This document shows positions 2,898-39,901 of a stretch of 64,000 bases of DNA, piece after piece. The notes below the pieces were generated by a model that saw only the letters and a program-made list of their open reading frames with translations, was not told the origin of the DNA and ran no database searches. Within the stretch, counting starts at the first letter, position 1. Every line of letters starts with the position of its first letter. The stretch lies in IMG/VR virus record IMGVR_UViG_3300007177_000352, positions 1-64,000 of that record; one strand, given 5' to 3'. The stretch comes from a virus. Taxonomy: Duplodnaviria; Caudoviricetes. The translations under genes were made by a program, and so were the position numbers.

Positions 2898-4058
2898 CTA
2901 CAGTGACTCAGTGTGGCGGTGATTCATTTCCTCTGCATGTACCAAAAAATCATTCTGATGCAAGTTGTAATTCCCGTCCTTGCCTCGTAGCAAGGTTATT
3001 ACCCACCTGCCGTGATCTGACCCATAAGGCACTGCTAATACAGTACCGAAGCCATTGTTTTGATGTGGGAGTTCAACAAAACTATAGGTATTCCCATGAA
3101 AGTGGAGTGTCGTAGTGGATAACTCATCATCATTCTTTTCAGACAAAAGCAGAATTACCGCTTCGATATCATCAGGCCTTGTACATTTTGGAAACAATGC
3201 ACTACTCCTACTAAATCGCACTTCAATTACACCCAGAGATAGAACTTCAGTCACTGGTTCTTCTGGCATGAATTCCTGCGTCGCTGTTTCAACTGGAATA
3301 TCAAGTAGGTAATTGCCGACCTTGATCTCCCCATGAAACGGCATAACCTGCCAATTCGTTTGCCATTTTGGCTTGGTCATCATAAACTGGTCGCCTGATA
3401 TGCAGACCACAAGCACTTGATAGAAAACATCATCACCATCATAGTCCTTGCCAATGTCTGTTATCACCGGGGCGACATACTTGACCCGGTATGCACCCTC
3501 ACCAAAGTAATCCCTAACCTCCGCCAGAAACTCGCCCGGCGCGTCCTCTAAATCAAACTCCTTTTTCGTGACCATTTCACTGGGTGAGTAGTAATGGGTA
3601 TTGGTGAGTCGCTTCATTGACACTGCTGGTTGTATTGAGGTACTAACCTCTTGTGCAATAATGGCACTGGCCATAACAAGGTTTGGCTTCGCAACTGGGG
3701 CAGTTTTCGGAGTGCATTCAGGGGCCGTTGCCACTGGTTGCACTGGAGTTGCCACTGCGGCAGTTTCCACTGGGGTTGCCACTGGGGAGGCTAATTCAAC
3801 TTCAAATATGAAGTTGTTTGGCAATTTCCCTTTGCAACACGAACCCACAGGGAAAAACCCCTGTGAATCCTCAAAATCTTGATCACTAGACACCAGCTCG
3901 AGTGAGTCTAGCAAGTGAACACAAAATTTCTCTTTTTTTATTTCCTTCCCGCACAAGATACATCCGCCGTTCCTATCCCAATTCACATTTTCATCTTGCA
4001 CGTCCTCAAGGTCTATTTTAAAGACCCATCTATTAATATTCCTCTTGTTAGTTGCCAT
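2898..4058 (-). CDS. modular early protein, paralog of 4181..6067
   Basis: shares ~110-aa near-identical domain (TNTHYYSPS...KVGNYLLD) and PVAT/PVET linker with the upstream ORF. Confidence 0.75.
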   Translation of the reverse strand: MATNKRNINRWVFKIDLEDVQDENVNWDRNGGCILCGKEIKKEKFCVHLLDSLELVSSDQDFEDSQGFFPVGSCCKGKLPNNFIFEVELASPVATPVETAAVATPVQPVATAPECTPKTAPVAKPNLVMASAIIAQEVSTSIQPAVSMKRLTNTHYYSPSEMVTKKEFDLEDAPGEFLAEVRDYFGEGAYRVKYVAPVITDIGKDYDGDDVFYQVLVVCISGDQFMMTKPKWQTNWQVMPFHGEIKVGNYLLDIPVETATQEFMPEEPVTEVLSLGVIEVRFSRSSALFPKCTRPDDIEAVILLLSEKNDDELSTTTLHFHGNTYSFVELPHQNNGFGTVLAVPYGSDHGRWVITLLRGKDGNYNLHQNDFLVHAEEMNHRHTESL

Positions 4059-4180: not shown

Positions 4181-6067
4181 TTACCAATTCCTACTTAGGA
4201 AGTTATGGTATTCATCTATCGCTTGCTGATTGAATGGCAATCCACCGTAGGTTATGACAAATGGCACCCTATGACACGTCCCTGTTGCAGATGTTACCAG
4301 TGCGGCACCAAACCCGTTTAACTCATACGGGTTGGAAAGCATCCTGTAGGTATTCAAGTGGTAATGCAGTGTATCCCATCCGTCAATAAAGCCGTTTTGC
4401 AACATCATTATGACGGCCTGTCTATCCTCTTCCACAGAGGAGGATAGAAATAAGCATTGTACATCACCACGCTTTGAGTCGGCGTACCGTACCTCAATAT
4501 CGGTGGCCTCGGTTTTCGCCTTAACCGATGTAATAAATTCTTGGGTGCGCTCTCTCCAGCACTCCCACCCGGCATCCCAGACCTCGTCACCTTCTGGACT
4601 GATAATCAAATTCGTTTCCAGTTCACCCAGATTAACTAAGTCACTCAGAGACAACTGTTCCGGACGCCGCTTCGAGACCCTATAATCACGCAGGCCGGCT
4701 CTGTATAGCAGTACCCAAATGCGAACTCTGGTTAGGCTGCTGGACTCCATTTCAGCTAGAAAGTCCTCTGCCCATTCATTGTCGGTGACTGGTATAGCTA
4801 CTGGTGAATGACTGTTATCCACTTCCACTGCATCCTGCGTTGTTGTTTCAACTGAAGTATCAAGTAGGTAATCGCCGACCTTGACCTCACCATGAAATGG
4901 CATGACCTGCCAATTCGTTTGCCATTTTGGCTTTGTCATTAGAAACTGGTCGCCTGACTGACAGACAACCAACACTTGATAGAAATCATCATCACCATCG
5001 TAGTCCTTGCCGATGTCCGTTATCACCGGTGCGACATATTTGACCCGGTATGCACCCTCACCAAAGTAATCTCTGACCGCGGCCAGAAACTCGCCCGGCG
5101 CCTCTTCAAGGTCAAACTTCTTGTTAGTTACCATTTTACTGGGTGAGTAGTAATGGGTATTGGTGCTTTGCTTCGTTTCCACTGGGGTTGCCACTGGGGC
5201 CGTTTCCACTGGGGTTGCCACTGGGGCCGTTTCCACTGGGGTTGCCACTGGGGCCGTTTCCACTGGTTGCACTGAGGTTTCGCTACCACCTTCTAAAATA
5301 CGGTCGCCCTCGACAGCCCTCAAAATTGCGTTTCGGCTGAACTCTATTTCGGTGTCGATTTCCCGCACCCACACCTTTGGGAAATCTAATTTAAAACCCA
5401 CCACTCTGCCTGCATAAACCTTCCCGTTTACACGGATCTTGACAGTCTTACCTTCCACCATCGTCCTAAAATCCACTGCCGCTGGTTGCACTGGGGCCGT
5501 TTCCACTTCAACCTCTTCCTCTGTCTGCACCGCTACCGTCACCGGAGTGATTCCCCAGTTATCGTAATCCCCCTCCACTCTATTGAGTAGAAAACTACCC
5601 CTGTCAGTATCAATTTGCCAGGGTTTGTCCATATGCCACGGTCCGTCTTGCTTGGTGATCGACGTTACGTTGATATGATGTTTGGCAAACAGGTTGTAAA
5701 TCTGTTTGTTAAACATTGCATCATCTTGCAATGGATGGAAAGGCATTTGCGTCGGGGCAGTGGTTTGCACTTCAGCCGCTGAGATGTTCTGTAAAAACAC
5801 CGCTTTGTCTGCGTTCTTAAATACCTTCATGACTTCTTGATAGCCATACGCAAATAGTGCCTCGGCAGTCCATGTGACGCCGTTCACATCACACGTTCCG
5901 TATTCCACCCAGCGGTCTTCAGATTTGACGAACCATAGGGCGGTGGTTTTCAGATAATTTCTGAAAGAGGTTAGCGTTGTTGTAAAGGCATCGCCCATGT
6001 TGTTTTGAAGTTGACGGTGGGCGGCGGCCATGTTTTTCATGATTAAAGTAGCAATATTAGTGTTCAT
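4181..6067 (-). CDS. modular early protein, first gene after the tandem promoter array
   Basis: 628-aa ORF, AAGGTG SD, contains PVETAPVAT repeats and the duplicated domain. Confidence 0.8.
   Translation of the reverse strand: MNTNIATLIMKNMAAAHRQLQNNMGDAFTTTLTSFRNYLKTTALWFVKSEDRWVEYGTCDVNGVTWTAEALFAYGYQEVMKVFKNADKAVFLQNISAAEVQTTAPTQMPFHPLQDDAMFNKQIYNLFAKHHINVTSITKQDGPWHMDKPWQIDTDRGSFLLNRVEGDYDNWGITPVTVAVQTEEEVEVETAPVQPAAVDFRTMVEGKTVKIRVNGKVYAGRVVGFKLDFPKVWVREIDTEIEFSRNAILRAVEGDRILEGGSETSVQPVETAPVATPVETAPVATPVETAPVATPVETKQSTNTHYYSPSKMVTNKKFDLEEAPGEFLAAVRDYFGEGAYRVKYVAPVITDIGKDYDGDDDFYQVLVVCQSGDQFLMTKPKWQTNWQVMPFHGEVKVGDYLLDTSVETTTQDAVEVDNSHSPVAIPVTDNEWAEDFLAEMESSSLTRVRIWVLLYRAGLRDYRVSKRRPEQLSLSDLVNLGELETNLIISPEGDEVWDAGWECWRERTQEFITSVKAKTEATDIEVRYADSKRGDVQCLFLSSSVEEDRQAVIMMLQNGFIDGWDTLHYHLNTYRMLSNPYELNGFGAALVTSATGTCHRVPFVITYGGLPFNQQAIDEYHNFLSRNW
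5174..5266. repeat. 27-bp coding tandem repeat, ~3.4 copies (PVETAPVAT)
   Basis: CGTTTCCACTGGGGTTGCCACTGGGGC at 5174, 5201, 5228 and partial at 5255. Confidence 0.95.
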
Positions 6068-6539: not shown

Positions 6540-7060
6540 CCTGTCTAGGTCCCCATCATCCGATTACGTCCCACACTGTCATTTTTTTACCTATTTTCCT
6601 ACCATCAAGACCCGCGCCGTTCCTAGCTTCGCAAAACCGATTTTTGGCCATTTTCACACCTTACTGCCAGGGCCGACCTACACACGCCGTTCCTATCATC
6701 AATGGACTTAGATGGTAGCTGAAGCCGCTTGGTGACTACGTTTTGAACAGTTTCATAGCAACCTTTGGCATTCAAAGCGTGGTGTTTCTTGTAAAGGTCC
6801 CGGACCTTACGTCAGGTCCCTGTTTCAGCGACCTATACAACGGGAAGCCGCATATTTAAAGGCTTGTGAAGGTCGTCTAGGTCAAAAGGCACTTTTTCAA
6901 ACTCTTTTCTATAGAGAAGTTTTCTTAGAAAAGAAATTTATAATATATATCTCAAAAATGACCTATACGACCTTCACAGAGCTTACAAAGCACGTATTCA
7001 TTAGGTTTTCACCTGTATAGGTCCTTTCAAAAAGACCTTTACATTTTCTCCTGACCCCCA
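6540..7060. other. putative replication origin A (iterons around AT-rich core)
   Basis: repeated GT(C/A)TAGGTC/GACCTATAC motifs in both orientations around an AT-rich centre, directly downstream of the helicase; homologous to 36800-37330. Confidence 0.6.
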
Positions 7061-7101
7061 CAAGTTTGTCACTCCAAAAATCCCCTTTGAGTGATGTAAA
7101 T

Positions 7102-8763
7102 CTATCTATTTTGCCCATCTACCCACTCCTCTAAAGATGTTACCCAGTCGAAGCCCTTCTCTGCCTGTTCCCGTAAGGTTGCATAAAACCGCATAAGCGA
7201 GGCTTTCTTCACATCAATGAGAATGGATGCAATGTAGTCCACTCCGCCCATCACGGTGGTCAATTTGCCCATTTCGTCGCAAATTTCAGCGGCCACAACT
7301 TTGGTATCTAACTCCTCACCATCCGTATCAAAAGTGAAATCCACTATAGAATACTCAGTGCCATTCGCAATCTTTAAACCTATGAATCCCGCGCCGTTTG
7401 ATTCGCCGACCCGTAGATTCCGTTTCCACTCCACTCCACTTACACCCAGTGTTACCGTCACGGCCTCCTCAAGCTGCCTTGAAAAGTTATTCTTGTTGAC
7501 CTGTCCTTTCCGACCATTCTGTTCGCACCATTGCACAAAATTTGGATACAAACTCTGGTCTGCCGTTGCATAGCGGTCGGCCCCGGTGCCTAGCATCCCG
7601 ACCCTGGTCCGTGCCCCTGGTGAAAACTCCACATTTTCAGAAAGCCATGCGATAATCGCATTCGTCTCGGTGAGAGTCTGCCGCTTTGCATCAAAAGCGG
7701 CCTTGACCATGGTATCCGTATTTCTAAGGATATTTTCCATATCAGAAATACTCATTCCAAGAACCCAATTTAGAAGGCCGGGTATTTCATCTTTGAAGTC
7801 CACACTTAGGTCCCGGCGATGCTTAATGGGTGTGACATTATCAAATGCGATAGATATTCGGCGCCGGGGGATTGCAGAGGAGGTATCTGAAAAGCGGATA
7901 GGACTATTAGCGGCGATAGCAACCATACCGTGAAATACAAAAGAATCACCTTGTTGCTGATTCTTTTTTTCATGCCTCAGCGGGTCACCACCTGTAATGG
8001 ATTTGAATACAGAGCCGTCTCCTCCAAAGTTAGAGGCGTCGGTGACCATCACCAATCGTTTACCTTGGATGGCCGCGGTCTCAAAGCGATTGGACTCCAG
8101 TTGACTCATCATGGTCGTGTAGCAATTGCGTTCTCCTATCATTGCCACTAGCAGATTTAGCAAAGTACTTTTGCCGGACCCGCCTGGGCCTACAATTTCA
8201 AGATAGCGTTGCAAATCGTACCGGCCTAACATCACGGCCAAAAAGAAGGCACGAATCAACTCAATGACTTGCCTATCATTACGGGTTGCTTCGTTTAACC
8301 ACTTGTGAATTTTTGGACATTCCGCCCCCGGATTATACTCAAAGGGGAGTTGCCAAGTGAAGCAATTCGTTGGGTTATGACCATCGGTGAATTGACGGTT
8401 ACTCAGGTTGAGAGTACCATTTTGGAAGGGGATTAAATTTGGACTCACCTCATTATCCCATGAGTCATAACTCATAGTGCCCATGAGGAGTTTAGTGACA
8501 CCGGAGACGAAATTGAAACTGAAGTTCGTGAAGAAGTTTTCGTCTATAGCACGGCGGACGGCCTCGCGTATTTTCAAGTCCTTGACCGGTTCCCAAATAC
8601 CTTCTTTGAACCGTCTCCATAGATTTGAACTGGAATCGTAAGCATACGTTCCACTGAATTGCGCGGCGAGTGACTTCATAATATCATTTTCGCCTGGTCT
8701 GGCTTGTTTGGTGGATTTAGCAGGCTTTCCTGCTGGACTACTTTTTGGATTTTTTGTTGACAT
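7102..8763 (-). CDS. P4/D5-family SF3 replicative helicase (D5_N + helicase + C-terminal winged helix), no primase domain
   Basis: IPFQNGTLNL, FTWQLPFEYNP, Walker A GPGGSGKS, FKSITGGDPLRHEKK, AIPRRRISIAF, C-terminal LYPNFVQWCEQNG. Confidence 0.9.
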   Translation of the reverse strand: MSTKNPKSSPAGKPAKSTKQARPGENDIMKSLAAQFSGTYAYDSSSNLWRRFKEGIWEPVKDLKIREAVRRAIDENFFTNFSFNFVSGVTKLLMGTMSYDSWDNEVSPNLIPFQNGTLNLSNRQFTDGHNPTNCFTWQLPFEYNPGAECPKIHKWLNEATRNDRQVIELIRAFFLAVMLGRYDLQRYLEIVGPGGSGKSTLLNLLVAMIGERNCYTTMMSQLESNRFETAAIQGKRLVMVTDASNFGGDGSVFKSITGGDPLRHEKKNQQQGDSFVFHGMVAIAANSPIRFSDTSSAIPRRRISIAFDNVTPIKHRRDLSVDFKDEIPGLLNWVLGMSISDMENILRNTDTMVKAAFDAKRQTLTETNAIIAWLSENVEFSPGARTRVGMLGTGADRYATADQSLYPNFVQWCEQNGRKGQVNKNNFSRQLEEAVTVTLGVSGVEWKRNLRVGESNGAGFIGLKIANGTEYSIVDFTFDTDGEELDTKVVAAEICDEMGKLTTVMGGVDYIASILIDVKKASLMRFYATLREQAEKGFDWVTSLEEWVDGQNR

Positions 8764-8839
8764 GATACATACCTGATTGCGAAAAGTTATGGCAGTATCA
8801 AGCAGGCGAGAATATTTTTAGAAAAATCTGAAAAATCTA

Positions 8840-8868
8840 TTGACAACTAGGATGGGTTGCTATATACT
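8840..8868 (+). promoter_or_regulatory. near-consensus sigma70 promoter firing antisense to the helicase leader
   Basis: TTGACA (8840-8845), 17 bp, TATACT (8863-8868). Confidence 0.8.
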
Positions 8869-8874
8869 CTTTAT

Positions 8875-8998
8875 TAGATTAAGTAGAATTGTTTTGGTCA
8901 AGATTTTAAAATTCTATCTTAGTCCTGCTTGATACTGCTACTTACTCCGATACCTTTAAGAATTTCCTAGGTTCTATTAGGGGTATCGGTATTTTTTT
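8875..8998 (+). ncRNA. putative ~125-nt cis-antisense RNA with two stem-loops
   Basis: own promoter; stem 8877-8923; linker containing a 15-nt box; terminator hairpin 8947-8989 plus TATTTTTTT; no ORF. Confidence 0.65.
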
Positions 8999-9009
8999 GA
9001 CCTAAGATA

Positions 9010-9038
9010 ATTATTGCACACTTCTGGAGTAAAGTCAA
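9010..9038 (-). promoter_or_regulatory. sigma70 promoter for helicase mRNA (~240-nt leader)
   Basis: minus strand TTGACT (9038-9033), 17 bp, AATAAT (9015-9010). Confidence 0.65.
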
Positions 9039-9118
9039 TCTTAAATAAGTGGTTGATTTATAAAGTAAAAAGGCGACTTGGACAGTCTCCGTCTCAGTCA
9101 CTTCCCCAGTTGTCACCT

Positions 9119-9316
9119 TCATAACAATCTCAAATCGGTTGCATGGGTTTCTATTGGGTCTGGGAACTGCGCATCGCGCAGAATTTGCCAGAGTTTGTCA
9201 GTATCTACAGGTCTGACATCGTCATACCAGTGCTGATACAATGGGTGACTTTTATCTATTCTCACGTCACCTATTGGTGTTCGCATACACGGAAAAGAAG
9301 ATTTATATAAGGTCAT
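9119..9316 (-). CDS. small hypothetical protein
   Basis: ATGA overlap with the ASCH gene stop. Confidence 0.5.
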   Translation of the reverse strand: MTLYKSSFPCMRTPIGDVRIDKSHPLYQHWYDDVRPVDTDKLWQILRDAQFPDPIETHATDLRLL

Positions 9317-9681
9317 GTCCCGAATGTGCCTTTTTGATAATAAAACAACCCTAACTTCCCTTTCATTCTAACAAACTCCACTTCCCGCGGATTTGTGAGT
9401 ACCCAGTGGAATTGGTCTGCTATCGCCCATCTGGACGGGTGATTTTTGACGCAATCCACTAGGTCGACTATTCCTATCACCCCACCGAAGTTGGCATCGG
9501 GGTGGGAGGTTAGAAATTCTTTCTTTTCCTCTTTGCCGCCGTCAAAAGTCAGGGCGGCATGGATGTAAAGTGGACCTCTGTAAGTGGTTGTCCACATTCT
9601 GTTTTCTATGTCCTTCCCCGCCCGTATGATCAGGTGTGCATACGGTTGGCGAATGGACAGGATGGGGTATTGCCAGTTCAA
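9313..9681 (-). CDS. ASCH (PUA-like) domain protein
   Basis: LSIRQPYAHLIIRAGKDIENRMW...YRGPLYIHA, GGVIGIVDLVDC, KGKLGLF. Confidence 0.85.
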   Translation of the reverse strand: MNWQYPILSIRQPYAHLIIRAGKDIENRMWTTTYRGPLYIHAALTFDGGKEEKKEFLTSHPDANFGGVIGIVDLVDCVKNHPSRWAIADQFHWVLTNPREVEFVRMKGKLGLFYYQKGTFGT

Positions 9682-9965
9682 ATTAATTCACTTTCTCTGG
9701 TTAATCTCATTTTGAGAGGTGTCTTGCAGTGTGGACATTCCACCGTGCATTGTTTGGAATTTATCACACCGATTTTGTCGTCAAGTTGAGCCCCGATGGC
9801 CTCATCAATGTACTTATTTGTTAGGTCACACATGAATGTTATGGTCTGCATAACCAGTTCTCGTTCTCTGTTCGTTTGGAGTTGCAACGTTTGTAGGAAC
9901 TCCTGCGACTCTTGTAGCATTTTTTGCTGATATGTCATAGTTTCACCGTTTATCCGCGTAATCAA
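9678..9965 (-). CDS. hypothetical protein with C-terminal CPHC
   Basis: overlapping-stop operon context; true start probably internal (MTYQQ). Confidence 0.45.
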   Translation of the reverse strand: MITRINGETMTYQQKMLQESQEFLQTLQLQTNRERELVMQTITFMCDLTNKYIDEAIGAQLDDKIGVINSKQCTVECPHCKTPLKMRLTRESELI

Positions 9966-10051
9966 AAATCATGGGTTCATCCCATTCTTCAAGGACTAGC
10001 CTCTCATAGTATAGCCACCGACCTCTCTTGTTAGTTCCTCTGCAAACACAA

Positions 10052-10384
10052 TCAGCTACCTCTCTTCGTTCTAAGATACTCTTTTAGAGAGAGTATTGTC
10101 AGTGCGTTTGCAAGTTGATTTAAAATCTCCTTTTCACGGGATAGCCTGTGCTCTTGAGTAAGCACCCCTAATCTAAATATGGCGGCCTCACTTGACCCGC
10201 CTAGATGCTCTCTTAGGATATCAGATGCAAAATCTACTATATCCATGCTACGTCTCTTTGCACGAAAAGCCAAAGCGCCGTATAACTTAGGATAGACTTC
10301 TAATTCCATGTCAAATGGTTGTGCTAACTTAATAGTTACGCAACCTGCCATGTCCATTCCTATCATCTTCTCTGGGTTAAACAT
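10052..10384 (-). CDS. hypothetical protein, possible ribbon-helix-helix/Arc-like regulator
   Basis: LYGALAFRAKRRSMDIVDFASDILREHL resembles helices of RHH proteins; AAAGG SD. Confidence 0.45.
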   Translation of the reverse strand: MFNPEKMIGMDMAGCVTIKLAQPFDMELEVYPKLYGALAFRAKRRSMDIVDFASDILREHLGGSSEAAIFRLGVLTQEHRLSREKEILNQLANALTILSLKEYLRTKRGS

Positions 10385-10455
10385 TTCTCTACCTTTATCT
10401 TATTGGTTTAGCTACTCCAACTCTTTTAGAGAGTTGGAGTAGTGTAGTTAGCTAA

Positions 10456-10587
10456 CTAATACTCCTCCTCCTCATCCAATTCGTCTTCGTCTTCGTCTTC
10501 ATCTTCGTCTTCGTCTTCATCTTCGTTTTCGTCTTCGTCTTCCTGATAACCAGTTGCTACCTTCCGTTTAACATCATTCCACGTCAT
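10456..10587 (-). CDS. 43-aa highly acidic peptide
   Basis: AGAGG SD before ATG 10587; 25 of last 28 residues Asp/Glu, encoded by a GAAGAC/GAAGAT microsatellite. Confidence 0.55.
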   Translation of the reverse strand: MTWNDVKRKVATGYQEDEDENEDEDEDEDEDEDEDELDEEEEY

Positions 10588-10630
10588 AAACTGACCTCTT
10601 AAAGTTAAGTTGAAATTTATACCAAACGAC

Positions 10631-11491
10631 CTAGAACAATGACTTACGCTCAGGTTTCGTTGGCAGTTGTAATTCATTAGGCAATTGCTTATATGCCATA
10701 AGCCGATGCCATTTATAGCCTTCATTGCAAGCTGACCCGACTTGCTTAAAGAAAAACAGAATATCCAAAGCCTGACACTCCTCCATTAAGTCAGTCGCCC
10801 ACTCTACTTGCATTGGCCTTGCCTCTCGTTTTAAAGTCCTTTCGCCTCCACAGACAACCCAGTTGACCTTGCTTAACTCGTCCCTGTTAAATTGAATCCT
10901 ATCTAACATCGGTTCAATGGATAGCCATCTATTCACTGCATTGCACTCATTTAATGAGTGCAGTTTCCAAACTTCCTCTTGATTGCAGACCGACACCCCG
11001 ACCCATAAATTAGGTAAGGATACATCAAACTGCATAAGACCTTTAGGTCGTTTCGTGAGGACAAGAAACTGTTGCTGTGACCTGGATTTGACAAACTTTA
11101 ATACCTCCTCCACTGCCCACTTCGCTTTTTCAAAAGTGAGAGTTTCCACTTTACCACATGACCTCTTTGAACAACTTCCTATGCTAATATCGCCTTCATA
11201 TTTGATAAACACACCTTCATTAGCATTAGCAAATTCTAGCAATCCAAACATATCACCCATGTCGCCAATAAACACCACTCCTTTCTTAGGTACTTGCGGG
11301 TGTAAAATTGCCTCCTCTTTTACGCAAGGCCGGAATCCAATTCCGCTATAATGCACTGATGGATTATGCGAGAACCTTGTTTCAACTATACGCTTGGCAT
11401 AACAGTTTTTGCAACCATCAGAAACTAAGTTTTCACTGCAACCCGTGATGGGATTCCAAGTGTGTTGGCAGTATTCGATTTTCGTTGCCAT
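10631..11491 (-). CDS. phage Gp37/Gp68 (DUF5131) family protein
   Basis: TKIEYCQHTWNPITGCS...GCKNCYAKR, VFIGDMGDMF, FLVLTKRP, WLSIEPML, WVVCGGE, FFFKQVG. Confidence 0.9.
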   Translation of the reverse strand: MATKIEYCQHTWNPITGCSENLVSDGCKNCYAKRIVETRFSHNPSVHYSGIGFRPCVKEEAILHPQVPKKGVVFIGDMGDMFGLLEFANANEGVFIKYEGDISIGSCSKRSCGKVETLTFEKAKWAVEEVLKFVKSRSQQQFLVLTKRPKGLMQFDVSLPNLWVGVSVCNQEEVWKLHSLNECNAVNRWLSIEPMLDRIQFNRDELSKVNWVVCGGERTLKREARPMQVEWATDLMEECQALDILFFFKQVGSACNEGYKWHRLMAYKQLPNELQLPTKPERKSLF

Positions 11492-12070: not shown

Positions 12071-14122
12071 TTACTGTACTTTAGATGCAATAAGTGCGAT
12101 ATATTTATCAATCAGTGCATCATTCTTAGTAAAATCCGTACTGAAGACCGGCGTATGTATCCTTTGCACACTCGCCCCCTGTTTCAACAAAGCGTCGCCG
12201 ACATTGACGAGCTTCTCCGCCGGGAAGTTACTACCACCGAATGTCACCGCGTCCTTTTGAGAGTCAAGGTGAAATGATAGCTTATTAGACTCCTCGAAGA
12301 GTGCCTTTCCTGCGTTACTACCAGTAGGCCCAAACATTCCTTTGGTTGCAAAAGTACCCACTGAATAAAAGAACATCCCGTACTTACGTCCAGTGGTGAC
12401 AATCCCAGCGATAAGAGACCCTAACCGTTCCCGCGTCGCCTTCTCATTAAACAATGCGCCTACCTCCTCTAAGACGATAAACACGATTGGTTTAGCAGGC
12501 TTCCCGTCCTTCATTAGATGTTGATTTACACTGGTGATATGCTGACACTTATACTTTTTCAGTAAAGCGACACGATCCTTGAGTTCCTTATCAAGGTACT
12601 CCAACATCTTGACCGACTCAAGTTGAGAGTTTGCTATGTCCTGTACAAACTTCCCTTGCAACGGGCTATATTTCATAGCGGTGGCGCCGTTGACATCACT
12701 GATATAGTAAGCCACCGGAGTAGCTGACTTGATAGACCACAGCATCTGGTAAATCAACATAGAGTGCAATAAGCTACTTTTGCCACTCCCTTTCTTACCT
12801 ACAATCAACAAATCCTGGAGTGCAAAAGCGCACTTTTGAACTGGCTTGCCTTCGGTATCAATCCCAAGTAACAAAGGGAACTTAATACCATCCTCCAATA
12901 CCTTGATACGCCCCTGAACCAAGTCCTTAAATAAAACCACGCTTCTTAATTGCGGTGGCTTATTTACAGAATAGACATACTCGCCACCGGACGTATCAAA
13001 GGATACATCCGTCTTATTGACCTGCATCAGCCTAGCAAGTTCCTTTTCAGCCTCCTTCCAAGTCTTATCTTGACCAATAGATGCCGTAGCTGGCGTCATT
13101 GAGAATCGCCATGTAAAAGGGCCATCAGTGAGACGGAGGTTATCAAAGCCCAATCCTAGCGTAATCAATCCGTCCCGGATTTTATCCGTGGTGCTAATAG
13201 AGGTGACAGTAGCCAGTTTAGTATTAGCTGGTTTAGCTAGTGGTTTATCAACTGTTACTGCCTCCTCCTTATGCTTTAGGGGAGTCACTGGTTTAGGACT
13301 TGGACTTGGTTTTACTATATCCTGTAATACTGGTATTTCAACATCATCAAAAGCTATCCCAGTCGGGTGGTTGGCCTGCATATTGGGCGTTGGTGCGTGC
13401 GTGTTGACGTTGTTGATTACCTCCTCCTCCGCCACCGCCGTGGTTGTTGCCTTGATTGCCATTTGACCTTGACGGTGTTGAATGTATCCCTTGACTGCGC
13501 TCCTCACCTCCTCTACCTTGATGAGTAACGGACGGGAGGATAGTTTTTTTTTTACTACATTATCAACCTTGTGGACTATTGGCGCCATCCTTTTGCCATA
13601 TAAGTCATAGTTGAATAAGTAATGACTAAGAATACATACAGCCAGTAAAGCTAAGAAGACCATGCCAATCAGAGTCATGTTGACGCCGAACCAGTCCACT
13701 GGGTAAATCCACACTTGACCTACCACATTCAACATATTCCCGTTCATATCCGTTGGAATATGAAGATGATTCTTGAGTATCATAATCACCTCATATCCAG
13801 ATACAAAGAATTGGATAACGAAAGTGGTAATCCCGGCTTTTAAGAGAATAGATAGATTCTCCCCTAGTGTGAAAATCGCTTGCATGGCACCCATCCAAAA
13901 TACCACGCTAAAAAGGAAAATGAATATGTGTAGGTAATACCTACCAAATAGCATTTCAAGAGTCATGTAAACTGGCATGGCCAGCGACCCAACGTCCCCT
14001 GGGGGAGCTGATAGCATAATGGCATTATGCAGAAAGTTCATACCAAAAAAGAACCAAAGTGAAAACCAAGTGACCAACGCGGCCGCAACCCACACAAAAA
14101 TAGTTTCGCCATTTGTTTTCAT
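12071..14122 (-). CDS. FtsK/SpoIIIE-like ATPase with N-terminal transmembrane segments
   Basis: several hydrophobic helices in aa 1-170, Pro-rich linker, FPLLLGIDTEGKP, Walker A GKKGSGKS, Walker B IVLEEVGAL, GRKYGM; no obvious C-terminal gamma domain. Confidence 0.8.
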   Translation of the reverse strand: MKTNGETIFVWVAAALVTWFSLWFFFGMNFLHNAIMLSAPPGDVGSLAMPVYMTLEMLFGRYYLHIFIFLFSVVFWMGAMQAIFTLGENLSILLKAGITTFVIQFFVSGYEVIMILKNHLHIPTDMNGNMLNVVGQVWIYPVDWFGVNMTLIGMVFLALLAVCILSHYLFNYDLYGKRMAPIVHKVDNVVKKKLSSRPLLIKVEEVRSAVKGYIQHRQGQMAIKATTTAVAEEEVINNVNTHAPTPNMQANHPTGIAFDDVEIPVLQDIVKPSPSPKPVTPLKHKEEAVTVDKPLAKPANTKLATVTSISTTDKIRDGLITLGLGFDNLRLTDGPFTWRFSMTPATASIGQDKTWKEAEKELARLMQVNKTDVSFDTSGGEYVYSVNKPPQLRSVVLFKDLVQGRIKVLEDGIKFPLLLGIDTEGKPVQKCAFALQDLLIVGKKGSGKSSLLHSMLIYQMLWSIKSATPVAYYISDVNGATAMKYSPLQGKFVQDIANSQLESVKMLEYLDKELKDRVALLKKYKCQHITSVNQHLMKDGKPAKPIVFIVLEEVGALFNEKATRERLGSLIAGIVTTGRKYGMFFYSVGTFATKGMFGPTGSNAGKALFEESNKLSFHLDSQKDAVTFGGSNFPAEKLVNVGDALLKQGASVQRIHTPVFSTDFTKNDALIDKYIALIASKVQ

Positions 14123-20897: not shown

Positions 20898-22013
20898 ATG
20901 ACAATCAATGATTTGTTATTGAATCCGGTGACGTTGCTACAGGCTGTGAAAACTGTTCCACCCCTGTCAACGTTTCTCCGTGACTTTCTGTTTAAAGAAA
21001 CGCAACAATCCTCTACCGTTCAAATCGCAATAGATGAGATAGTTGGCAACCGTCGACTAGCCCCTTTTGTTGCTTCTAATGCAGTGGCACCCAATGTTGA
21101 ACGCACGGCATTTAGCAGTAAGATTTATCGCCCCCCTTTGGTCAAGGCGAAAAAGAATCTACAGGCTCTTGATGCGCTTAACCGCCTTCCAGGTGAGCTT
21201 CCATTTACCACGGGTGCGGCGTTTGATAGTCAGGAACGCGCTATGGAATTGCTAGGCTGGGAATTGCAAGAATTGAGTAACCGTATCGGTCGCCGTGAAG
21301 AATGGATGATTAGTCAATTGCTTGATACTGGTTCTATCGCTGTTTCTGGCGACGGAATCAATGAAACGATAGACTATGAAATGCCAGCGGGTCACAAGGT
21401 CACATTGACCGGTAATGACCTATTTAGCAGTTCTAACTGCGACCCGATTGCATTATTTACGGAATGGCAACGTCTTATCCAAAAAGATGGCAAACTAGGT
21501 CCTGCTGACTTCGCAATCATGGGTAGAGATGTGCGTGACGCCTTCTTATCACACCCAAAAATCTCACCTAACGCCACCTCTGTACTAAACACACTACGGG
21601 TTGATTTAGGTGTGATTAATCCTAACGCACTTCCCAACGGTGCCGAGTTTTTGGGTACGCTAAAGGGACTGGGTGGACTCAATCTGTATGCTTACAATGA
21701 GTATTACGAAGATGATAATGGGGTCGTCCAGGACATGATGCCGGCGGATAAGATTTATATTGGTTTTAGCCGTGCCCGCAACATCTTTGCTTATGGCGCC
21801 ATCCAAGACCTCCAAAGCCCGACGGTGGCAAATAACATGTCACGGATGCCAAAGGGTATCCCGACACTCCCTCGTAATAACACTTATGCCATGTCTCGTT
21901 TCCCTAAGACGTGGTTTACTGAGGAGCCGTCAGCGCAAATTCTGATGATGCAATCGGCACCATTACCCATTATGGTACAACCCAATTGCTTCATGAGTAT
22001 CAAGGCCGTCTAA
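20898..22013 (+). CDS. major capsid protein (lambda gpE family)
   Basis: TFLRDFLF, RRLAPFV, PPLVKAK, IGRREEWMISQLLDTG, MMQSAPLP. Confidence 0.9.
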   Translation: MTINDLLLNPVTLLQAVKTVPPLSTFLRDFLFKETQQSSTVQIAIDEIVGNRRLAPFVASNAVAPNVERTAFSSKIYRPPLVKAKKNLQALDALNRLPGELPFTTGAAFDSQERAMELLGWELQELSNRIGRREEWMISQLLDTGSIAVSGDGINETIDYEMPAGHKVTLTGNDLFSSSNCDPIALFTEWQRLIQKDGKLGPADFAIMGRDVRDAFLSHPKISPNATSVLNTLRVDLGVINPNALPNGAEFLGTLKGLGGLNLYAYNEYYEDDNGVVQDMMPADKIYIGFSRARNIFAYGAIQDLQSPTVANNMSRMPKGIPTLPRNNTYAMSRFPKTWFTEEPSAQILMMQSAPLPIMVQPNCFMSIKAV

Positions 22014-31458: not shown

Positions 31459-31964
31459 TTAAGCATCCTTACTTGAAAGGAGTGGTTTACGTCGCCGCTC
31501 CTTTGGCCTAACCCACACCCGGGCCATTTGACTCTTAGTCTTCTTAATGGCAGGCATGGCTTCTATCTTCCTAATCCAACCTCTGTCACTTAAAATCCGT
31601 GCCAAAAGATGTTTATCCGGTCTCCTAGTTGATAGGTCATTGGGATAAAACCTTTCTAGGAATGATTGAGTGACAATCTCTTCTGGTGACTCAGTAGAGA
31701 GGTATTCATTGAGAGTCTTTTCTATCTCATTACGCCGAGGGTTAATCCATTTTGGATTAGGTTGGTTACTCCACACCCATCCTCCAGGTGAGTTATATTT
31801 GCAATAACCTCGGTCCTTGAGGACGTGTGATAGCAGGTGTTTATCACCCCGCGGTGGATTAGGGCCCAGCACGTCCTCACTGGTAAAGAGGTCAGCGGAC
31901 GGGTTAATGGTAAGGTATTTTAGAAACTGAGTTTCTATATGTCTCGTCCTGATTTCGTTACTCA
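31459..31964 (-). CDS. protein with two tandem winged-helix-like repeats resembling VapE/primase C-terminal domains
   Basis: DKHLLSHVLKDRGYCK and DKHLLARILSDRGWIRK...RVWVRP; likely start MSNEI. Confidence 0.55.
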
Positions 31965-33226
31965 TTTGGCATCCTCTGTAGATAGGCATTTAAAGTAACT
32001 CGCGCAATACCTGACAGCTTTTGCATTTCAGATATGTTGCCGTTGCAAACACGATGCAATGCGGTAATGTATTGCATCATCAATTGATTCTGGAATTGTT
32101 CCATCACGGTGGCTTTGTTCGGAATAGAGTTAAATCTTAGAACAAAACCAGTGTCAGTCGCCTCCTTATCCACCTCCACCGTCTCGGCTGGCGTAACATC
32201 CATATCGTCACTGCCATTCAGCATGTCTTTTACTAGCTTGACACTCACCTCACCCTCCTCCTTAAAAATCGCAATCCGTTGGCAAACTTGTTTCAACTCA
32301 CGGACGTTGCCAGGCCAATTTAGACCGGTCAAGTAGTCCACCGCCTTTTCGCTGAATTGCACTCCCGTTAGGAACGTCTTTAGGAGTAACGGAATATCCT
32401 CTCTTCTCGTGCGCAACGAAGGCACTTCAATGGTGAATCCATTGAGTCTATAGTAAAGGTCTTCCCTGAATTTACGTTCCCTGACTAGTTGCTTTAGTGA
32501 GTGGTGAGTCGCGCAAATAACACGCGCACTGGTATGCTGTGCCTTAGTATCGCCCACTTTGACGTAAGTACCGTTTTCAAGTACCCTTAGCAACTGGGCC
32601 TGGCATTGCATTGGCATGTCACCCACCTCGTCCAAAAATAGGGTGCCGCCATTGGCCTCCTCAAATAACCCAATCTTATTTCTGTCTGCCCCCGTGAAGG
32701 CGCCCTTGACATGACCAAAGAGTTCTGAATTAAGAAGCTCCGCCGTGAAGCCGGCGCAGTTTATTTTCACAAACTCACCTTGACGGCCTGACAGGCTATG
32801 CAGGTCGGTTGCAACTAATTCTTTACCTACCCCCGTTTCCCCATGAATGTACACTGGGATTGCATGGGGGGCGAGCTTCGCAATGACCTTTTTTAAGTCG
32901 TTAATGGGCTTGGATTCGCCAATGATGCAACTGGTGATTTTTAATCCCAAAGCACGCTTGAGGTCGTCCACCGTGAATGGATTGACCAGCGGGGTGAGGT
33001 TTTGTTGACGGTGGTAGTTTGCCTTTTCTGATGTGCAAATGATTATCCCCTCCGTCGGCGCGAAGCTCTCGTCAACTATCTGTATATCCGCCTCCCCAGT
33101 AAACTCGTCAAATTGACGGAAGGAGGTGATGGCCATCGTGTGGTATCCCAACGATTTGGCAGCTTTTTCTAATGATACCGCTAAATCCTGCGAAGGTGTT
33201 GCTATTAATATTGTCTGCTTTTTCAT
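31958..33226 (-). CDS. sigma54-dependent enhancer-binding protein (NtrC-like AAA+ with Fis-type HTH)
   Basis: Walker [22 protein letters not shown] (intact GAFTGA), [26 protein letters not shown]-terminal [17 protein letters not shown]; degenerate receiver-like N-terminus. Confidence 0.95.
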
Positions 33227-37404: not shown

Positions 37405-37433
37405 TTGACAATTGATTTGGTATCAAATATACT
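37405..37433 (+). promoter_or_regulatory. near-consensus sigma70 promoter of dnaN
   Basis: TTGACA (37405-37410), 17 bp, TATACT (37428-37433). Confidence 0.8.
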
Positions 37434-37473
37434 ATCAATAATAGTAAAAATTACCTCACCTATAAACCATCTT

Positions 37474-38637
37474 ATGAATTTAGAATTAACTAAAAAAGAG
37501 CTTCTTTCCCCTCTAAAGACCGCAGCTTCCGTTATAGAAGACCGCCGGGCCGGCATGACAGTACTCGGTAATATTCTTTTGCAGGCCGACGGCAAACAAC
37601 TAAACTTAACGGGCGGTGATGGCGACATTGAGGTGACTTGCAACCTCCCTATTGAGACCAGCGCCACCTTTGCCATCACTGTTCCTAAAAAGCTATTAGA
37701 CATTACACGGTCGGTGAATGACGGCGGTGACTTGCATATTTCAGATAAAGACGATAAGCTAATTATAAAGTCTGGCAAAAGCCGCTTTACCTTGGCCACC
37801 TTGCCTGCCGACAATTACCCAGCCAGCCCGGTGTTAGAGGTCAATAAACAACTGACTCTCCCTCAATCGGAATTGAAGTCACTGATAAAACAATGTGCAT
37901 TTTGCATAGCCTCCAACGACATACGCTATTATCTAAACGGCGCGTTATTAGAAATAAATGATGGCGAAGCATACATGGTTGCCACCGACGGCCACCGTAT
38001 GGCAGTGACACCATTGGAATTGTTAGTCAGTCCAGTGGCGACCGCTGTGCCTACGAAAAAAACTAAGAAGTCTGCGGCTACCGAGGCCACCGATTCGGAT
38101 AATGCTAAAATCATTATCCCCCGTAAAGCCATCTATGAGTTACTCAAGTTACTCGGTGATGACGGGGACGTGCAAATAAGCTACACTGATAGTCACGTCC
38201 AATTTATTCTAGGGGACTCGCTTCGTTTAACGAGTAAGCTAATTGACGGGCAGTTCCCCGACTGGCGAAGCGTAATTCCCGCCAATGCAACTAACATTGC
38301 CCGTGTGTCTAAGGCCGACCTCTATTCAGCCATAGGCCGTGTAACTCTACTCTCTAACGAGAAATACAAAGGAGTGCGACTGACACTCTCTAAAGACCTC
38401 TTGACGGTTAATGCGAAAAATCCTAATCAAGAGGAGGCGACGGAAGAATTAGAGGTGATATATGAAGGCGAGCCTCTTGAAATTGGCTTTAACGGCGCCT
38501 ATCTACTAGAATCAATAGCGGCTGTGAATACCGCTGATGTGCAACTGGCATTCACAGATAGTAACTCCTCTGTGGTGATTACTCAAAATGAAGACGAGGC
38601 AGAAGGCAAGTGGATTATTATGCCAATGAGGTTGTAG
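37474..38637 (+). CDS. dnaN: DNA polymerase III beta sliding clamp
   Basis: LGNILLQA, DIRYYLNGALLE, VATDGHRMA, IIPRKA, SKLIDGQFPDWRSVIP, LSNEKYKGVRL, NPNQEEA, IGFNGAYL, IIMPMRL; start moved to ATG 37474 because the ORF-track TTG is the -35 box. Confidence 0.95.
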   Translation: MNLELTKKELLSPLKTAASVIEDRRAGMTVLGNILLQADGKQLNLTGGDGDIEVTCNLPIETSATFAITVPKKLLDITRSVNDGGDLHISDKDDKLIIKSGKSRFTLATLPADNYPASPVLEVNKQLTLPQSELKSLIKQCAFCIASNDIRYYLNGALLEINDGEAYMVATDGHRMAVTPLELLVSPVATAVPTKKTKKSAATEATDSDNAKIIIPRKAIYELLKLLGDDGDVQISYTDSHVQFILGDSLRLTSKLIDGQFPDWRSVIPANATNIARVSKADLYSAIGRVTLLSNEKYKGVRLTLSKDLLTVNAKNPNQEEATEELEVIYEGEPLEIGFNGAYLLESIAAVNTADVQLAFTDSNSSVVITQNEDEAEGKWIIMPMRL

Positions 38638-39109: not shown

Positions 39110-39901
39110 ATGCCTAAATACAATCAAGATAAACGCAATGCTAATCGCGGTACTGAGAGAGGACGTGAGTTACTCAAACAGTCCTTATCACGTCTCGGTC
39201 CTGGTCGTTCAATATTAGTGGATAAACACGGTACGGCTATAGCAGGCAATAAGACCTTAGCAGAAGCTACCTCTCAAGGTATCCCGACTGTGGAAGTGGA
39301 GACCGATGGTAAGACCTTAGTGGTAGTGAAAAGGACGGACTTAGATTTGGATACCGACATCAAGGCACGGGAGTTAGCTTTTGCCGATAACCGCGTGGCG
39401 GAACTTGATTTGGATTGGGATACGGAGGTTTTGAAGACTGACTTGGAGGTGCTTGATACTGACTTTCTTAACAACCTCTGGACGCCGGAGGATTTTTCAT
39501 TGGCAAATGATGAGGATAAGATGACAGGTGAAGAAGACGACCAATCCAATTACAGTCGTTCAGTCAAGTCACCCACCTATGTAGTCACTGGTGAAAAACC
39601 AAAATTAACTGACCTCTTTGATAACTCAGTAACGACGCGACTGATTAGCAACATCAATCAATCCAACCTCCCAGAGGACGAAAAGGAGTTTCTAAGAATA
39701 GCCGCGCAACGCCATACGGTATTGCATTTTGGAAACATAGCCGAGTATTATGCCCATGCCAACGAGGAGCTACAGACACTTATGGAGGATAATGCACTCG
39801 TCATTATTGACTTTAATAAAGCGATTGAGTTAGGTCTCGTTAAGATAACTAAGCAGATAGCCGAGATAACTAAAGAGGAATATGGTGATGACGACGTATA
39901 A
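39110..39901 (+). CDS. ParB-N-like domain fused to the conserved partner domain of phage glycosyltransferase loci
   Basis: GRSILVDK...IAGNKT, FADNRVAEL; C-terminal SPTY..TGEKP...AAQRH...IAEYYAHA...ALVIIDFNKAI. Confidence 0.75.
   Translation: MPKYNQDKRNANRGTERGRELLKQSLSRLGPGRSILVDKHGTAIAGNKTLAEATSQGIPTVEVETDGKTLVVVKRTDLDLDTDIKARELAFADNRVAELDLDWDTEVLKTDLEVLDTDFLNNLWTPEDFSLANDEDKMTGEEDDQSNYSRSVKSPTYVVTGEKPKLTDLFDNSVTTRLISNINQSNLPEDEKEFLRIAAQRHTVLHFGNIAEYYAHANEELQTLMEDNALVIIDFNKAIELGLVKITKQIAEITKEEYGDDDV

Follow-up and report, generated by a model that had tools for sequence, protein, structure and literature searches.

Organization of the helicase locus

The window analyzed here is a stretch of 64,000 nt of the IMG/VR record IMGVR_UViG_3300007177_000352, which belongs to an uncultured phage and is 83 kb long in full (91% complete). 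On its minus strand lies a gene for a helicase of superfamily 3 (SF3), of the D5/P4-alpha type. The combination of D5_N and DUF5906 found in this protein corresponds to the helicase half of P4-type primase-helicases, and PHROG 864, 'DNA primase', matches the gene at 8.9e-69 over the helicase part of that PHROG. The ATG start codon and an N terminus beginning with MS are kept among relatives. No GenBank phage matched the region by megablast, and the nearest isolated phage by protein is Synechococcus phage S-EIVl, at 29.5%, so that no annotated relative was of use. The homologues of sigma-54 activators, sought as pointers to the host, were uninformative, and the use of the promoters and terminators is assumed from consensus. 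Tyrosine integrase and ParB were sought in the 83-kb record (91% complete) and neither was found, nor were other lysogeny or partition genes.

The upstream operon ends at an intrinsic terminator, indicating that the helicase gene is a separate transcription unit. Stronger equivalents of this terminator (-21 to -26, z = -4 to -8) are located in the same place in the related loci L002, L005 and L006. The predicted helicase mRNA promoter is kept in L002, L008, L005 and, partially, L004, and a promoter of other sequence, TTGACT-17-TATAAT, is found in L006/L048. A 51-aa open reading frame (8967-9122) that overlaps the upstream gene by ATGA was rejected as a gene, because it is not kept in relatives and both the terminator of the upstream operon and the mRNA promoter fall inside it. 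The features of the locus are listed in Table 1.

Table 1. Coordinates of the helicase gene and of the predicted regulatory elements in the window
Feature	Position	Strand	Description
SF3 (D5/P4-alpha-type) helicase gene, 553 aa	7102..8763	-	Regulated gene; Pfam D5_N 9e-16, DUF5906 4.6e-16
Translation initiation region	8760..8775	-	SD CAGGU 8775-8771, AUG 8763-8761; 3' arm of the alternative hairpin
Untranslated helicase mRNA leader, ~240 nt	8764..9003	-	MFE -53 to -55 kcal/mol, z = -3.5
Box 2 (anti-RBS)	8791..8806	-	Outside the antisense target, 28 nt upstream of the AUG
Tandem A-tract repeats, GAAAAATCT x2	8820..8838	+	Directly 5' of the antisense -35 hexamer
Predicted antisense RNA promoter	8840..8868	+	TTGACA-17-TATACT, 11/12 matches
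Predicted antisense RNA, ~123 nt	8876..8998	+	Stem-loop 8877-8924, linker 8925-8946, terminator hairpin 8947-8989, U-run 8992-8998
Box 1 (pre-emptor / anti-anti-RBS)	8924..8938	-	Inside the antisense target; perfect 15-nt complement of box 2
Predicted helicase mRNA promoter	9010..9038	-	TTGACT-17-AATAAT, 10/12 matches, TG extended -10; predicted start ~9003
Intrinsic terminator of the upstream operon	9067..9101	-	Hairpin 9073-9101, U-run 9067-9071; -13.4 kcal/mol, z = -2.2

The helicase mRNA would thus start with a long leader, which measures 240-267 nt among the relatives. A conserved leader open reading frame was sought and none was found; the sole upstream AUG (8770) is out of frame, too near the SD, and missing in L002. 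No match at E <= 1 was obtained with the Rfam 15 covariance models over positions 7000-11000 on both strands.

Predicted antisense RNA and alternative pairings of the leader

An earlier note on this DNA had described convergent sigma70 promoters, a plus-strand RNA of ~125 nt with two hairpins and a terminator, and a perfect 15-bp inverted repeat in the mRNA leader. All three were recovered in our analysis, at the positions given in Table 1. The antisense promoter is one of only three sites in the 64-kb window with at most one mismatch from TTGACA-N17-TATAAT, for which 0.46 would be expected. It is preceded by A-tract repeats that may act as an UP element, judging from their position; A/T-tracts of varying sequence occupy the equivalent position in every relative. 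Consensus antisense promoters were also found in L006, L048, L010 and L011.

The predicted antisense RNA folds into two hairpins separated by a single-stranded linker (MFE -31.7 kcal/mol, z = -2.4). It is complementary to the leader from about +6 to +128 and terminates 5 nt short of the mRNA start. Its 5' end is 112 nt upstream of the helicase AUG, and its target is therefore distant from the ribosome-binding site (RBS). An automated scan misses its terminator because of the large loop. The predicted RNA contains no ATG-initiated open reading frame, and a 30-aa plus-strand frame (8840-8932) was discarded as a gene, since its 'start' coincides with the -35 hexamer and so lies ahead of the transcript. 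In the consensus structure of five sequences, 92% of the structure is paired and five pairs are altered on both sides. The covariation score was 0.191 compared with 0.112 in shuffled alignments, none of 500 shuffles reaching the observed value, although these counts are small and inflated by relatedness, as no more than four of the close sequences are independent. In the terminator stem, 20 pairs form in the sense of the small RNA, including invariant U-G pairs, versus 14 in the sense of the mRNA, which argues that the plus strand is the selected one.

The two arms of the repeat (8792-8806 and 8924-8938) are perfect 15-nt inverted complements, and by our own estimate ~2e-4 such pairs are expected per 600 nt. 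A search for exact copies of the box, with no mismatch, returned just these two inverted arms and no same-strand repeat. The duplex between box 1 and box 2 has an energy of -26.5 kcal/mol and is present in the MFE structure of the leader. Read on the plus strand, the bases of box 1 give the box 2 sequence, which is thus carried by the linker of the small RNA. Duplex energies were taken from core helices only, as predictions with long segments gave unrealistic chains of interior loops.

The downstream box had also been proposed to pair alternatively with the SD region or with the start codon. We examined both registers, and in folding the partner of box 2 is box 1 as long as the leader is free, and 8760-8773 once the antisense target is masked. 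In the latter state nucleotides 8791-8803 cover the GG of the SD and the AUG, forming a hairpin of 12 bp (-10.7 to -12 kcal/mol). The equivalent hairpins of L002, L004 and L005 have energies of -11.4 to -15.2. When compared with shuffled sequences, the box 2:RBS duplex was not significant by itself (z = -0.9 to -2.2). Masking of the antisense target decreased the mean probability that the RBS is unpaired from 0.71 to 0.38 in the window, from 0.48 to 0.38 in L002, from 0.59 to 0.23 in L004, and from 0.55 to 0.33 in L005. The same move of box 2 onto the SD and AUG was predicted by constrained folding for each of the four group A lineages (-10.7 to -15.2 kcal/mol).

Conservation among related loci

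Relatives were sorted by helicase identity into group A (the window, or L007, with L002/L008, L004 and L005; 75-82%), group B (L006, L048 and L009; 54-57%), and group C (L010; 48%). An exact-pattern scan of metagenome contigs yielded one further locus only, L008, a near-copy of L002, and a second pattern search of viral contigs returned just the L002 contig. The parts of the cassette, their conservation and the alternative pairings are apparent from the sequence and from this comparison. In group A all parts are present in identical order. The 275-nt noncoding region (76-83% nucleotide identity) and the coding sequence (73-80%) are about equally conserved, and a 45-nt block comprising the antisense promoter with its spacer is almost invariant. 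The box 1:box 2 helix is found in the MFE structure of every group A leader, with two-sided changes (C:G to U:A and G:C to A:U) that leave a core of 10-12 bp undisrupted. Such compensatory changes were seen in L002, L004 and L005. The long-range helix was judged from per-sequence folds and manual comparison, since MAFFT misplaces box 2 of L004. A candidate attenuator in L002/L008, consisting of a hairpin and T-tracts 3' of the antisense promoter, was dismissed because its T-run sits in the stem and it is independent of the antisense target.

In groups B and C, too, the antisense promoter matches the consensus, the terminator abuts the 5' end of the mRNA, and there are long-range boxes, whose sequences are unrelated (GGAGGGGA/UCCCCUCC and GACACCGAC/GUCGGUGUC). 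The antisense unit was detected by our scanner in 8/8 related loci versus 0/35 distant cellular D5-helicase loci. In groups B and C and in L049, box 2 adjoins the anti-RBS element rather than coinciding with it, and the RBS is predicted to lie in a local hairpin whether the target is masked or not (P(unpaired) from 0.26 to 0.32, 0.17 to 0.24, 0.36 to 0.33, and 0.41 to 0.36). Constrained folding of L006, L048, L010 and L049 predicted no induced sequestration of the RBS. The proposal in the earlier note that long-range pairing frees the RBS and that the antisense RNA occludes it therefore agrees with the folding of group A but not with that predicted for these four loci, and refolding may not be the conserved mode of action. 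As a separate observation, the antisense target of group B contains a candidate SD mimic, GAAGGGCA, complementary to the anti-SD, UGCCCUUC. This pairing is not in the MFE structure and would need a pseudoknot to form alongside the box helix.

Mode of action and significance

On the strength of its sequence and its conservation, the region preceding the helicase gene very probably represents a genuine antisense-RNA control cassette. We infer that both RNAs are made and that they pair, and we derive the direction of the effect and its physiological role in the same manner. A strong constitutive promoter inside the leader and opposite to it would generate a noncoding RNA of ~123 nt. Without this RNA, boxes 1 and 2 would pair over 15 bp, leaving the SD and AUG open. 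The antisense RNA would pair with the nascent leader and occupy box 1; nucleation would most plausibly occur where the single-stranded linker of the small RNA, which has the box 2 sequence, meets the still-unpaired box 1. A reservation here is that the 15-bp intramolecular helix, at -26.5 kcal/mol, can only be pre-empted during transcription. The released box 2 would then fold onto the SD and start codon, and less helicase would be translated. As the level of antisense RNA would track the number of phage genomes, the outcome would be negative feedback on, or a timed shut-off of, the helicase supply. We lean slightly toward this scenario as a whole, in which the antisense RNA takes box 1, box 2 refolds on the RBS and the helicase supply is throttled. 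Likewise, we consider it slightly more likely than not that refolding is the mode of action in this phage.

It may be that the antisense RNA is real but acts otherwise, by RNase III-type decay of the ~123-bp duplex or by head-on transcriptional interference, with the box helix only organizing or stabilizing the leader. We give this explanation a modest chance. The antisense unit is more widely conserved than the design in which box 2 pairs with either box 1 or the RBS but not with both, as shown by the local hairpins of groups B and C and L049 in both modelled states. The two convergent promoters, moreover, have starts separated by ~127 nt, and the antisense one is the stronger by consensus. 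Nevertheless, the box 2 nucleotides pair with box 1 or with the SD/AUG in 4/4 group A lineages despite sequence change, and L002 keeps an 11-bp box 2:RBS helix, a double complementarity that is unexpected if the boxes merely stabilize the leader. As for interference, occlusion of the mRNA promoter is limited because transcription of the small RNA ends at its terminator shortly before reaching it. That hexamers resembling the consensus and a repeat came together in an AT-rich spacer by mere coincidence and without function is extremely improbable. Promoter- and terminator-like sites are indeed common in AT-rich DNA (seven found versus 3.9 expected at a loose threshold), but only three sites in 64 kb reach the quality of the antisense promoter, ~2e-4 perfect 15-nt inverted pairs are expected, and the architecture is kept down to 48% helicase identity with unrelated sequence while occurring in none of the 35 control loci.

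The inverted repeat might also function as DNA, its arms being paired operators for a phage regulator that loops the antisense promoter out, or sites at which recombination inverts a segment carrying the promoter. The arms do flank the plus-strand promoter, and both would also be expected to change in concert if they were paired protein sites or recombining repeats. However, one arm of L010 is within the spacer of the antisense promoter, so that inversion would split the promoter, and the segment has the same orientation in 6/6 group A assemblies; a tyrosine recombinase was not found in the record. Moreover, the distances between arms and promoter vary by group while the logic at the RNA level is constant, with box 1 in the target and box 2 outside it, adjoining or overlapping the anti-RBS element, and a DNA site leaves the complementarity of box 2 to the RBS unexplained. 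We thus regard a DNA site as improbable. A role as part of a replication origin, in which the leader transcript primes or activates replication under control of the antisense RNA and the A/T repeats form an unwinding element, appears more improbable still. In ColE1, RNA I controls RNA II in this manner; as there, the antisense RNA here spans the initial ~125 nt of the opposing transcript and ends just short of its start. In addition, A/T-rich tandem repeats are present (8820-8838), and a helicase gene adjoins the region. Yet the transcript runs straight into a coding gene whose RBS joins the alternative pairing, and the repeats are exactly at the UP-element position of the antisense promoter, with only their A/T-tract character common between groups. 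No iteron array was found.

The refolding model that we favor has a good counterpart among the plasmid systems to which the earlier note likened the locus. In pSK41 and other staphylococcal RepA_N plasmids, the RNAI countertranscript promoter is inside the rep leader (Kwong et al. 2004, 2006, 2015, reviewed in PMC5703833). RNAI has two stem-loops and a single-stranded spacer, its target is ~100 nt upstream of the RBS without overlapping it, and its binding is proposed to induce an RBS-sequestering stem-loop without transcription termination (PMC5703833). The phage countertranscript similarly has its own predicted promoter and terminator in the leader, two stem-loops with a spacer, and a target distant from the RBS. 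By predicted logic the cassette works like pSK41 without being a member of that family, as it is unrelated to pSK41 RNAI in sequence, has no Rfam match, and would regulate a D5_N/DUF5906 helicase of a tailed phage rather than a plasmid RepA_N initiator. Its RNA is also longer (~123 versus ~83 nt), and its pre-emptor helix, a perfect 15 bp spanning 117 nt, is unlike that of pSK41. In pT181 (RNAI/repC) and pIP501 (RNAIII/repR), antisense RNAs drive attenuation, with a pre-emptor in the target that base-pairs to the 5' arm of a stem-loop further downstream (PMC5703833). The phage locus, which has no sequence homology to pT181, shares this three-element logic, with the pre-emptor in the antisense target, a downstream stem-loop containing the RBS, and a 5' arm that the antisense RNA would free. 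The pT181 analogy nevertheless stops short of the induced intrinsic terminator: the phage hairpin (8760-8803) takes in the AUG, and the stretch after it is the A-rich UCAACAAAAAAUCC with no U-run, so that translation rather than transcription should be the controlled step.

The likeness drawn to ColIb-P9 is poor. Inc RNA of ColIb-P9/IncB blocks a long-range contact needed for repZ translation, a pseudoknot that depends on translation of the repY leader peptide. Blocking of a contact between the target region and a near-RBS sequence is also predicted here, but the phage contact is a plain nested helix, not a pseudoknot, and no conserved leader peptide is present. Phage P4 CI RNA is processed from the same strand as the leader and controls the operon of the alpha primase-helicase by premature termination through seqA/seqC. 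Both systems involve a small RNA, pairing with a leader, and a P4-type primase/helicase operon, whereas the RNA predicted here is on the opposite strand, has its own promoter and no same-strand box repeat, and would occlude the RBS. Other phage cis-antisense RNAs repress a phage gene by base pairing, such as P22 sar on ant, lambda OOP on cII, and c4 of P1/P7. Their targets are lysis-lysogeny or antirepressor genes, mostly through covering of the RBS or RNase III cleavage; in contrast, the target here would be a replication helicase, and its RBS would be controlled indirectly, from ~110 nt away.

The earlier note had proposed copy-number control. That proposal presumes a plasmid-like state, and control of dosage or timing in lytic growth is more likely, given an 83-kb record (91% complete) in which neither tyrosine integrase nor ParB was found. 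For plasmids, it is textbook knowledge that antisense RNAs can set how much of a replication protein is supplied; to our knowledge, antisense control of replication genes of tailed phages is hardly documented, least for phages without visible lysogeny genes. One might speculate further, with more doubt than confidence, that promoter, leader, countertranscript and SF3 helicase together constitute a portable, self-contained replication throttle and a new RNA family within a clade of uncultured phages of ~80 kb that appear to be virulent, bringing plasmid-style gene-dosage-sensing feedback into lytic replication. The linker of the small RNA would then compete for the pre-emptor and also pair in trans with the helicase RBS, including that of co-infecting relatives, causing incompatibility or exclusion. 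Such a dual action is conceivable because the anti-RBS box and the single-stranded linker are identical in sequence. The cassette provides a search pattern for unannotated RNA genes of metagenomic phages. If confirmed, it would add a compact riboregulator defined by sequence, made up of a pre-emptor, an anti-RBS element, an RBS and a 123-nt trigger, with which a phage limits or times the supply of its own helicase via an RNA that tracks genome copy number.

The helicase gene and its predicted antisense RNA

The 7102-8763 product carries D5_N and DUF5906 domains, and its matches to phage 'DNA primase' PHROGs fall in their helicase portion. This makes it a stand-alone P4-alpha/D5-type SF3 helicase, for which the label of replicative helicase used in the earlier note is fair. 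No primase partner was identified, and the two large genes 3' of the helicase gene had no Pfam or PHROG match. The gene is a separate transcription unit, with its own promoter located after the terminator of the upstream gene, and far stronger equivalents of that terminator are found at the same place in relatives. The helicase mRNA is predicted to start at ~9003, yielding a leader of ~240 nt. A 51-aa ORF at 8967-9122 was rejected as a gene, as it spans the upstream terminator and the mRNA promoter and is not conserved.

A promoter scan recovered both convergent promoters of the earlier note. Only 3 sites with at most one mismatch to TTGACA-N17-TATAAT were present in the 64-kb window, versus 0.46 expected. 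The A-tract repeats next to the antisense promoter may represent an UP-like element. From ~A8876, the plus strand is predicted to fold into a 5' stem-loop, a single-stranded linker of ~22 nt and a 3' hairpin followed by U-A-U7, in agreement with the two-hairpin, terminator-bearing RNA proposed before. The U-run ends at 8998, five bases short of the mRNA start, and thus the antisense RNA would be complementary to positions ~+6 to +128 of the leader.

Features of the window (coordinates; promoter, fold and box assignments are predictions)
Feature	Position	Strand	Details
N6/N4 methylase fragment	147-743
Large gene 3' of helicase	2898-4058	-	386 aa
Large gene 3' of helicase	4181-6067	-	628 aa
Helicase gene	7102-8763	-	553 aa
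Inverted repeat	8792-8806 / 8924-8938		perfect 15-nt arms
Box 2 (anti-RBS)	8791-8806	-	outside antisense target
Tandem A-tract repeats	8821-8838		GAAAAATCT x2, directly 5' of antisense -35
Antisense promoter	8840-8868	+	TTGACA-17-TATACT, 11/12 matches
5' stem-loop	8877-8924	+
Box 1 (pre-emptor)	8924-8938	-	inside antisense target
3' terminator hairpin	8947-8989	+
Helicase mRNA promoter	9038-9010	-	TTGACT-17-AATAAT, TG extended -10
Upstream-gene terminator	9067-9101		hairpin + U-run, -13.4 kcal/mol
Upstream gene	9119-9316
FtsK/SpoIIIE-like ATPase, early region	12071-14122	-	PF01580, 6e-10; PHROG 1358
Sigma-54 activator-type AAA+ protein	31958-33226	-	PF00158, 3.7e-64
Second near-consensus promoter	37405-37433	+	TTGACA-17-TATACT, 11/12
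Candidate DNA hypermodification cassette	39882-44201	+	TAGT (TET-associated glycosyltransferase, 2.2e-34), radical SAM protein, C5 cytosine methylase
ORF of unknown function	56275-63987	-	2570 aa
Box-motif near-copies	3295-3309, 4854-4868, 21317-21331, 39448-39462, 52059-52073		core GTATCAAG

The IMG/VR virus record containing the window comprises 83,384 bases and is rated 91% complete. It encodes a Mu-type portal, an E-type major capsid protein, a large terminase and a lysozyme, as well as a beta clamp, a class II ribonucleotide reductase and the DNA-modification cassette. The beta-clamp ORF (37405-38637) begins with the second near-consensus promoter: the TTG listed as its start codon belongs to the -35 hexamer, and translation must in fact begin further into the ORF. 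Distant relatives of the helicase (<=41% identity) come mostly from filamentous cyanobacteria and Nitrosomonas. A sigma-54 activator-type AAA+ protein is unusual in a phage. No HTH_8 DNA-binding domain was detected in this one, and its close homologues (62-97%) are all metagenomic proteins. Cyanobacteria are not known to have sigma-54, which would make this protein odd for a cyanobacterial host.

Conservation of the antisense unit

Independent helicase loci were collected by protein searches and contig look-ups and grouped by helicase identity. In group A, all elements of the cassette are kept in unchanged order. Both promoters (the antisense one together with its spacer) and the terminator hairpin hardly vary, and the 275-nt non-coding region shows conservation similar to that of coding sequence (76-83% versus 73-80% nucleotide identity). 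Folded to a consensus, the antisense RNAs of the five group A sequences form both hairpins and an unpaired linker, with 92% of cells paired and five pairs changed on both sides. The covariation score for these five related sequences, a small sample, was 0.191 compared with 0.112 in shuffles (0/500 reaching 0.191). Read as plus-strand RNA, the terminator stem has 20 pairs, among them invariant U-G pairs; in the leader sense these positions would be A-C and only 14 pairs form, indicating that the plus strand is the one under selection. Rfam contains no family matching this RNA.

Helicase loci compared (P, probability that the RBS is unpaired in the predicted fold)
Group	Locus	Helicase identity	Box 1 / box 2	Predicted box 2:RBS hairpin	P, free	P, masked
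A	window = L007 (identical)	100%	GCAGUAUCAAGCAGG / CCUGCUUGAUACUGC, 15 bp	-10.7 to -12 kcal/mol	0.71	0.38
A	L002/L008	75%	GUAGUAUCAAAA / UUUUGAUACUAC (L002)	-13.6 kcal/mol, 11 bp (L002)	0.48 (L002)	0.38 (L002)
A	L004	81%	GGUAGUAUCA..CAG, one mismatch	-15.2 kcal/mol	0.59	0.23
A	L005	82%	GGUAGUAUCAA / UUGAUACUACC	-11.4 kcal/mol, 12 bp, one bulge	0.55	0.33
B	L006, L048 (81-kb viral contig), L009	54-57%	GGAGGGGA/UCCCCUCC; L048 register shifted to GGAGGGUA/UACCCUCC
C	L010	48%	GACACCGAC/GUCGGUGUC
ungrouped	L011 (103 nt of upstream sequence only)	51%
ungrouped	L049 (fused primase-helicase)	45%

The group B elements are unrelated in sequence to those of group A. Their mRNA promoter (TTGACT-17-TATAAT) is followed by an A-run and a hairpin, i.e., the antisense terminator read backwards, and their antisense promoter is at consensus (TTGACA-17-TATAAT or TATACT) and is accompanied by A/T-tracts. 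In group C, a consensus antisense promoter (TTGACT-17-TATAAT) and a terminator delimit a predicted RNA of ~70 nt. Reading by eye, we found an antisense TTGACA-17-TATAAT 40-70 nt 5' of the ATG in L011, and an antisense terminator with an extended -10 in L049. A scanner requiring a promoter and then a terminator within 45-220 nt detected the antisense unit in 8/8 loci of groups A to C but in 0/35 distant cellular D5-helicase loci, which argues that the cassette is a specific feature of this phage clade and does not simply reflect AT-rich spacers.

In L002, L004 and L005, the terminator hairpin shows 1-3 changes in ~50 nt, each either compensatory or located in the loop, and the antisense promoter region (8840-8884), spacer included, is conserved well beyond the needs of a generic promoter or terminator. 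Both contain CCTAG. This strong conservation may point to a sequence-specific partner, either a kissing loop or a protein.

The long-range helix and a predicted RBS switch

The perfect 15-bp inverted repeat reported earlier was recovered with a repeat finder; by our own estimate, chance would yield ~2e-4 such pairs in 600 nt. A helix between box 1 and box 2 is part of the predicted MFE structures of all leaders from groups A to C (-26.5 kcal/mol in the window), and across group A its changes are C:G to U:A and G:C to A:U. In every case the antisense target contains box 1 and excludes box 2. At <=3 mismatches the box motif has 7 matches in the window versus 1.5 expected (0/100 shuffles reach 7), and two of the near-copies sit in the genes 3' of the helicase, on the same strand; the near-copies may be due to chance.

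Each leader was folded both free and with the antisense target constrained to stay unpaired, which stands in for its duplex with the sRNA. With the target masked, box 2 of the window (8791-8803) is predicted to pair with 8760-8773, covering the GG of the SD and the AUG. As box 2 can pair with box 1 or with the SD/AUG, box 1 mimics the SD/start region, with which it shares GUAUCA, and box 2 would act as an anti-RBS. The sRNA linker, as the complement of box 1, has the box 2 sequence; it could therefore be a direct competitor for box 1 and, in principle, bind the helicase RBS as well.

The alternative pairing of box 2 with the SD or start codon, put forward in the earlier note, is thus predicted in group A but does not extend to groups B, C and L049. 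There the RBS is predicted to lie in a local hairpin in both states (P free to masked, 0.26 to 0.32, 0.17 to 0.24, 0.36 to 0.33 and 0.41 to 0.36), and box 2 adjoins the anti-RBS element without coinciding with it. Since, in addition, the box 2:RBS duplexes are individually not significant against shuffles, the antisense unit is better supported than the refolding step.

In the group B antisense target (L006 2590-2600, 2715-2725; L048 equivalents), GAAGGGCA is perfectly complementary to the anti-SD UGCCCUUC and mimics the SD AAGGGACA; if it paired while the box 1:box 2 helix is in place, a pseudoknot would result. The SD mimic may represent another way of wiring this switch.

Decay of the long sRNA:leader duplex or collision of convergent polymerases may contribute to the regulation, or may be its ancestral mode. 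It is unlikely that the inverted repeat acts at the DNA level, as an operator pair or invertible promoter: one arm in L010 falls within the antisense promoter spacer, the orientation is identical in all group A assemblies, no recombinase was found in the record, and box 2 is complementary to the RBS as well. A ColE1-like replication origin or primer is disfavored, as the transcript continues straight into a coding gene and a repeat search found no iterons.

Known systems and possible role

Pre-emptor logic has been described for pT181 and RBS sequestration for pSK41 (PMC5703833). As predicted from sequence and folding, the cassette would work in the same way as pSK41 RNAI/rep, but it falls outside that family, its RNA being unrelated and the regulated protein different. 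Its predicted pre-emptor logic is that of pT181, whereas the induced terminator that defines the pT181/pIP501 attenuators is absent, as are the leader peptide and pseudoknot of ColIb-P9. The cassette also differs from P4 CI, as its RNA would be made from the opposite strand by a promoter of its own. No description of antisense control of a phage SF3 helicase was found in the literature searched.

Neither a tyrosine integrase nor ParB was found in the 83,384-base record. As no lysogeny or partition genes are visible, plasmid-type copy-number control, the role first proposed, is less likely than one in lytic growth. The cassette thus likely provides dosage feedback or a timed shut-off of the helicase during the lytic growth of the phage.
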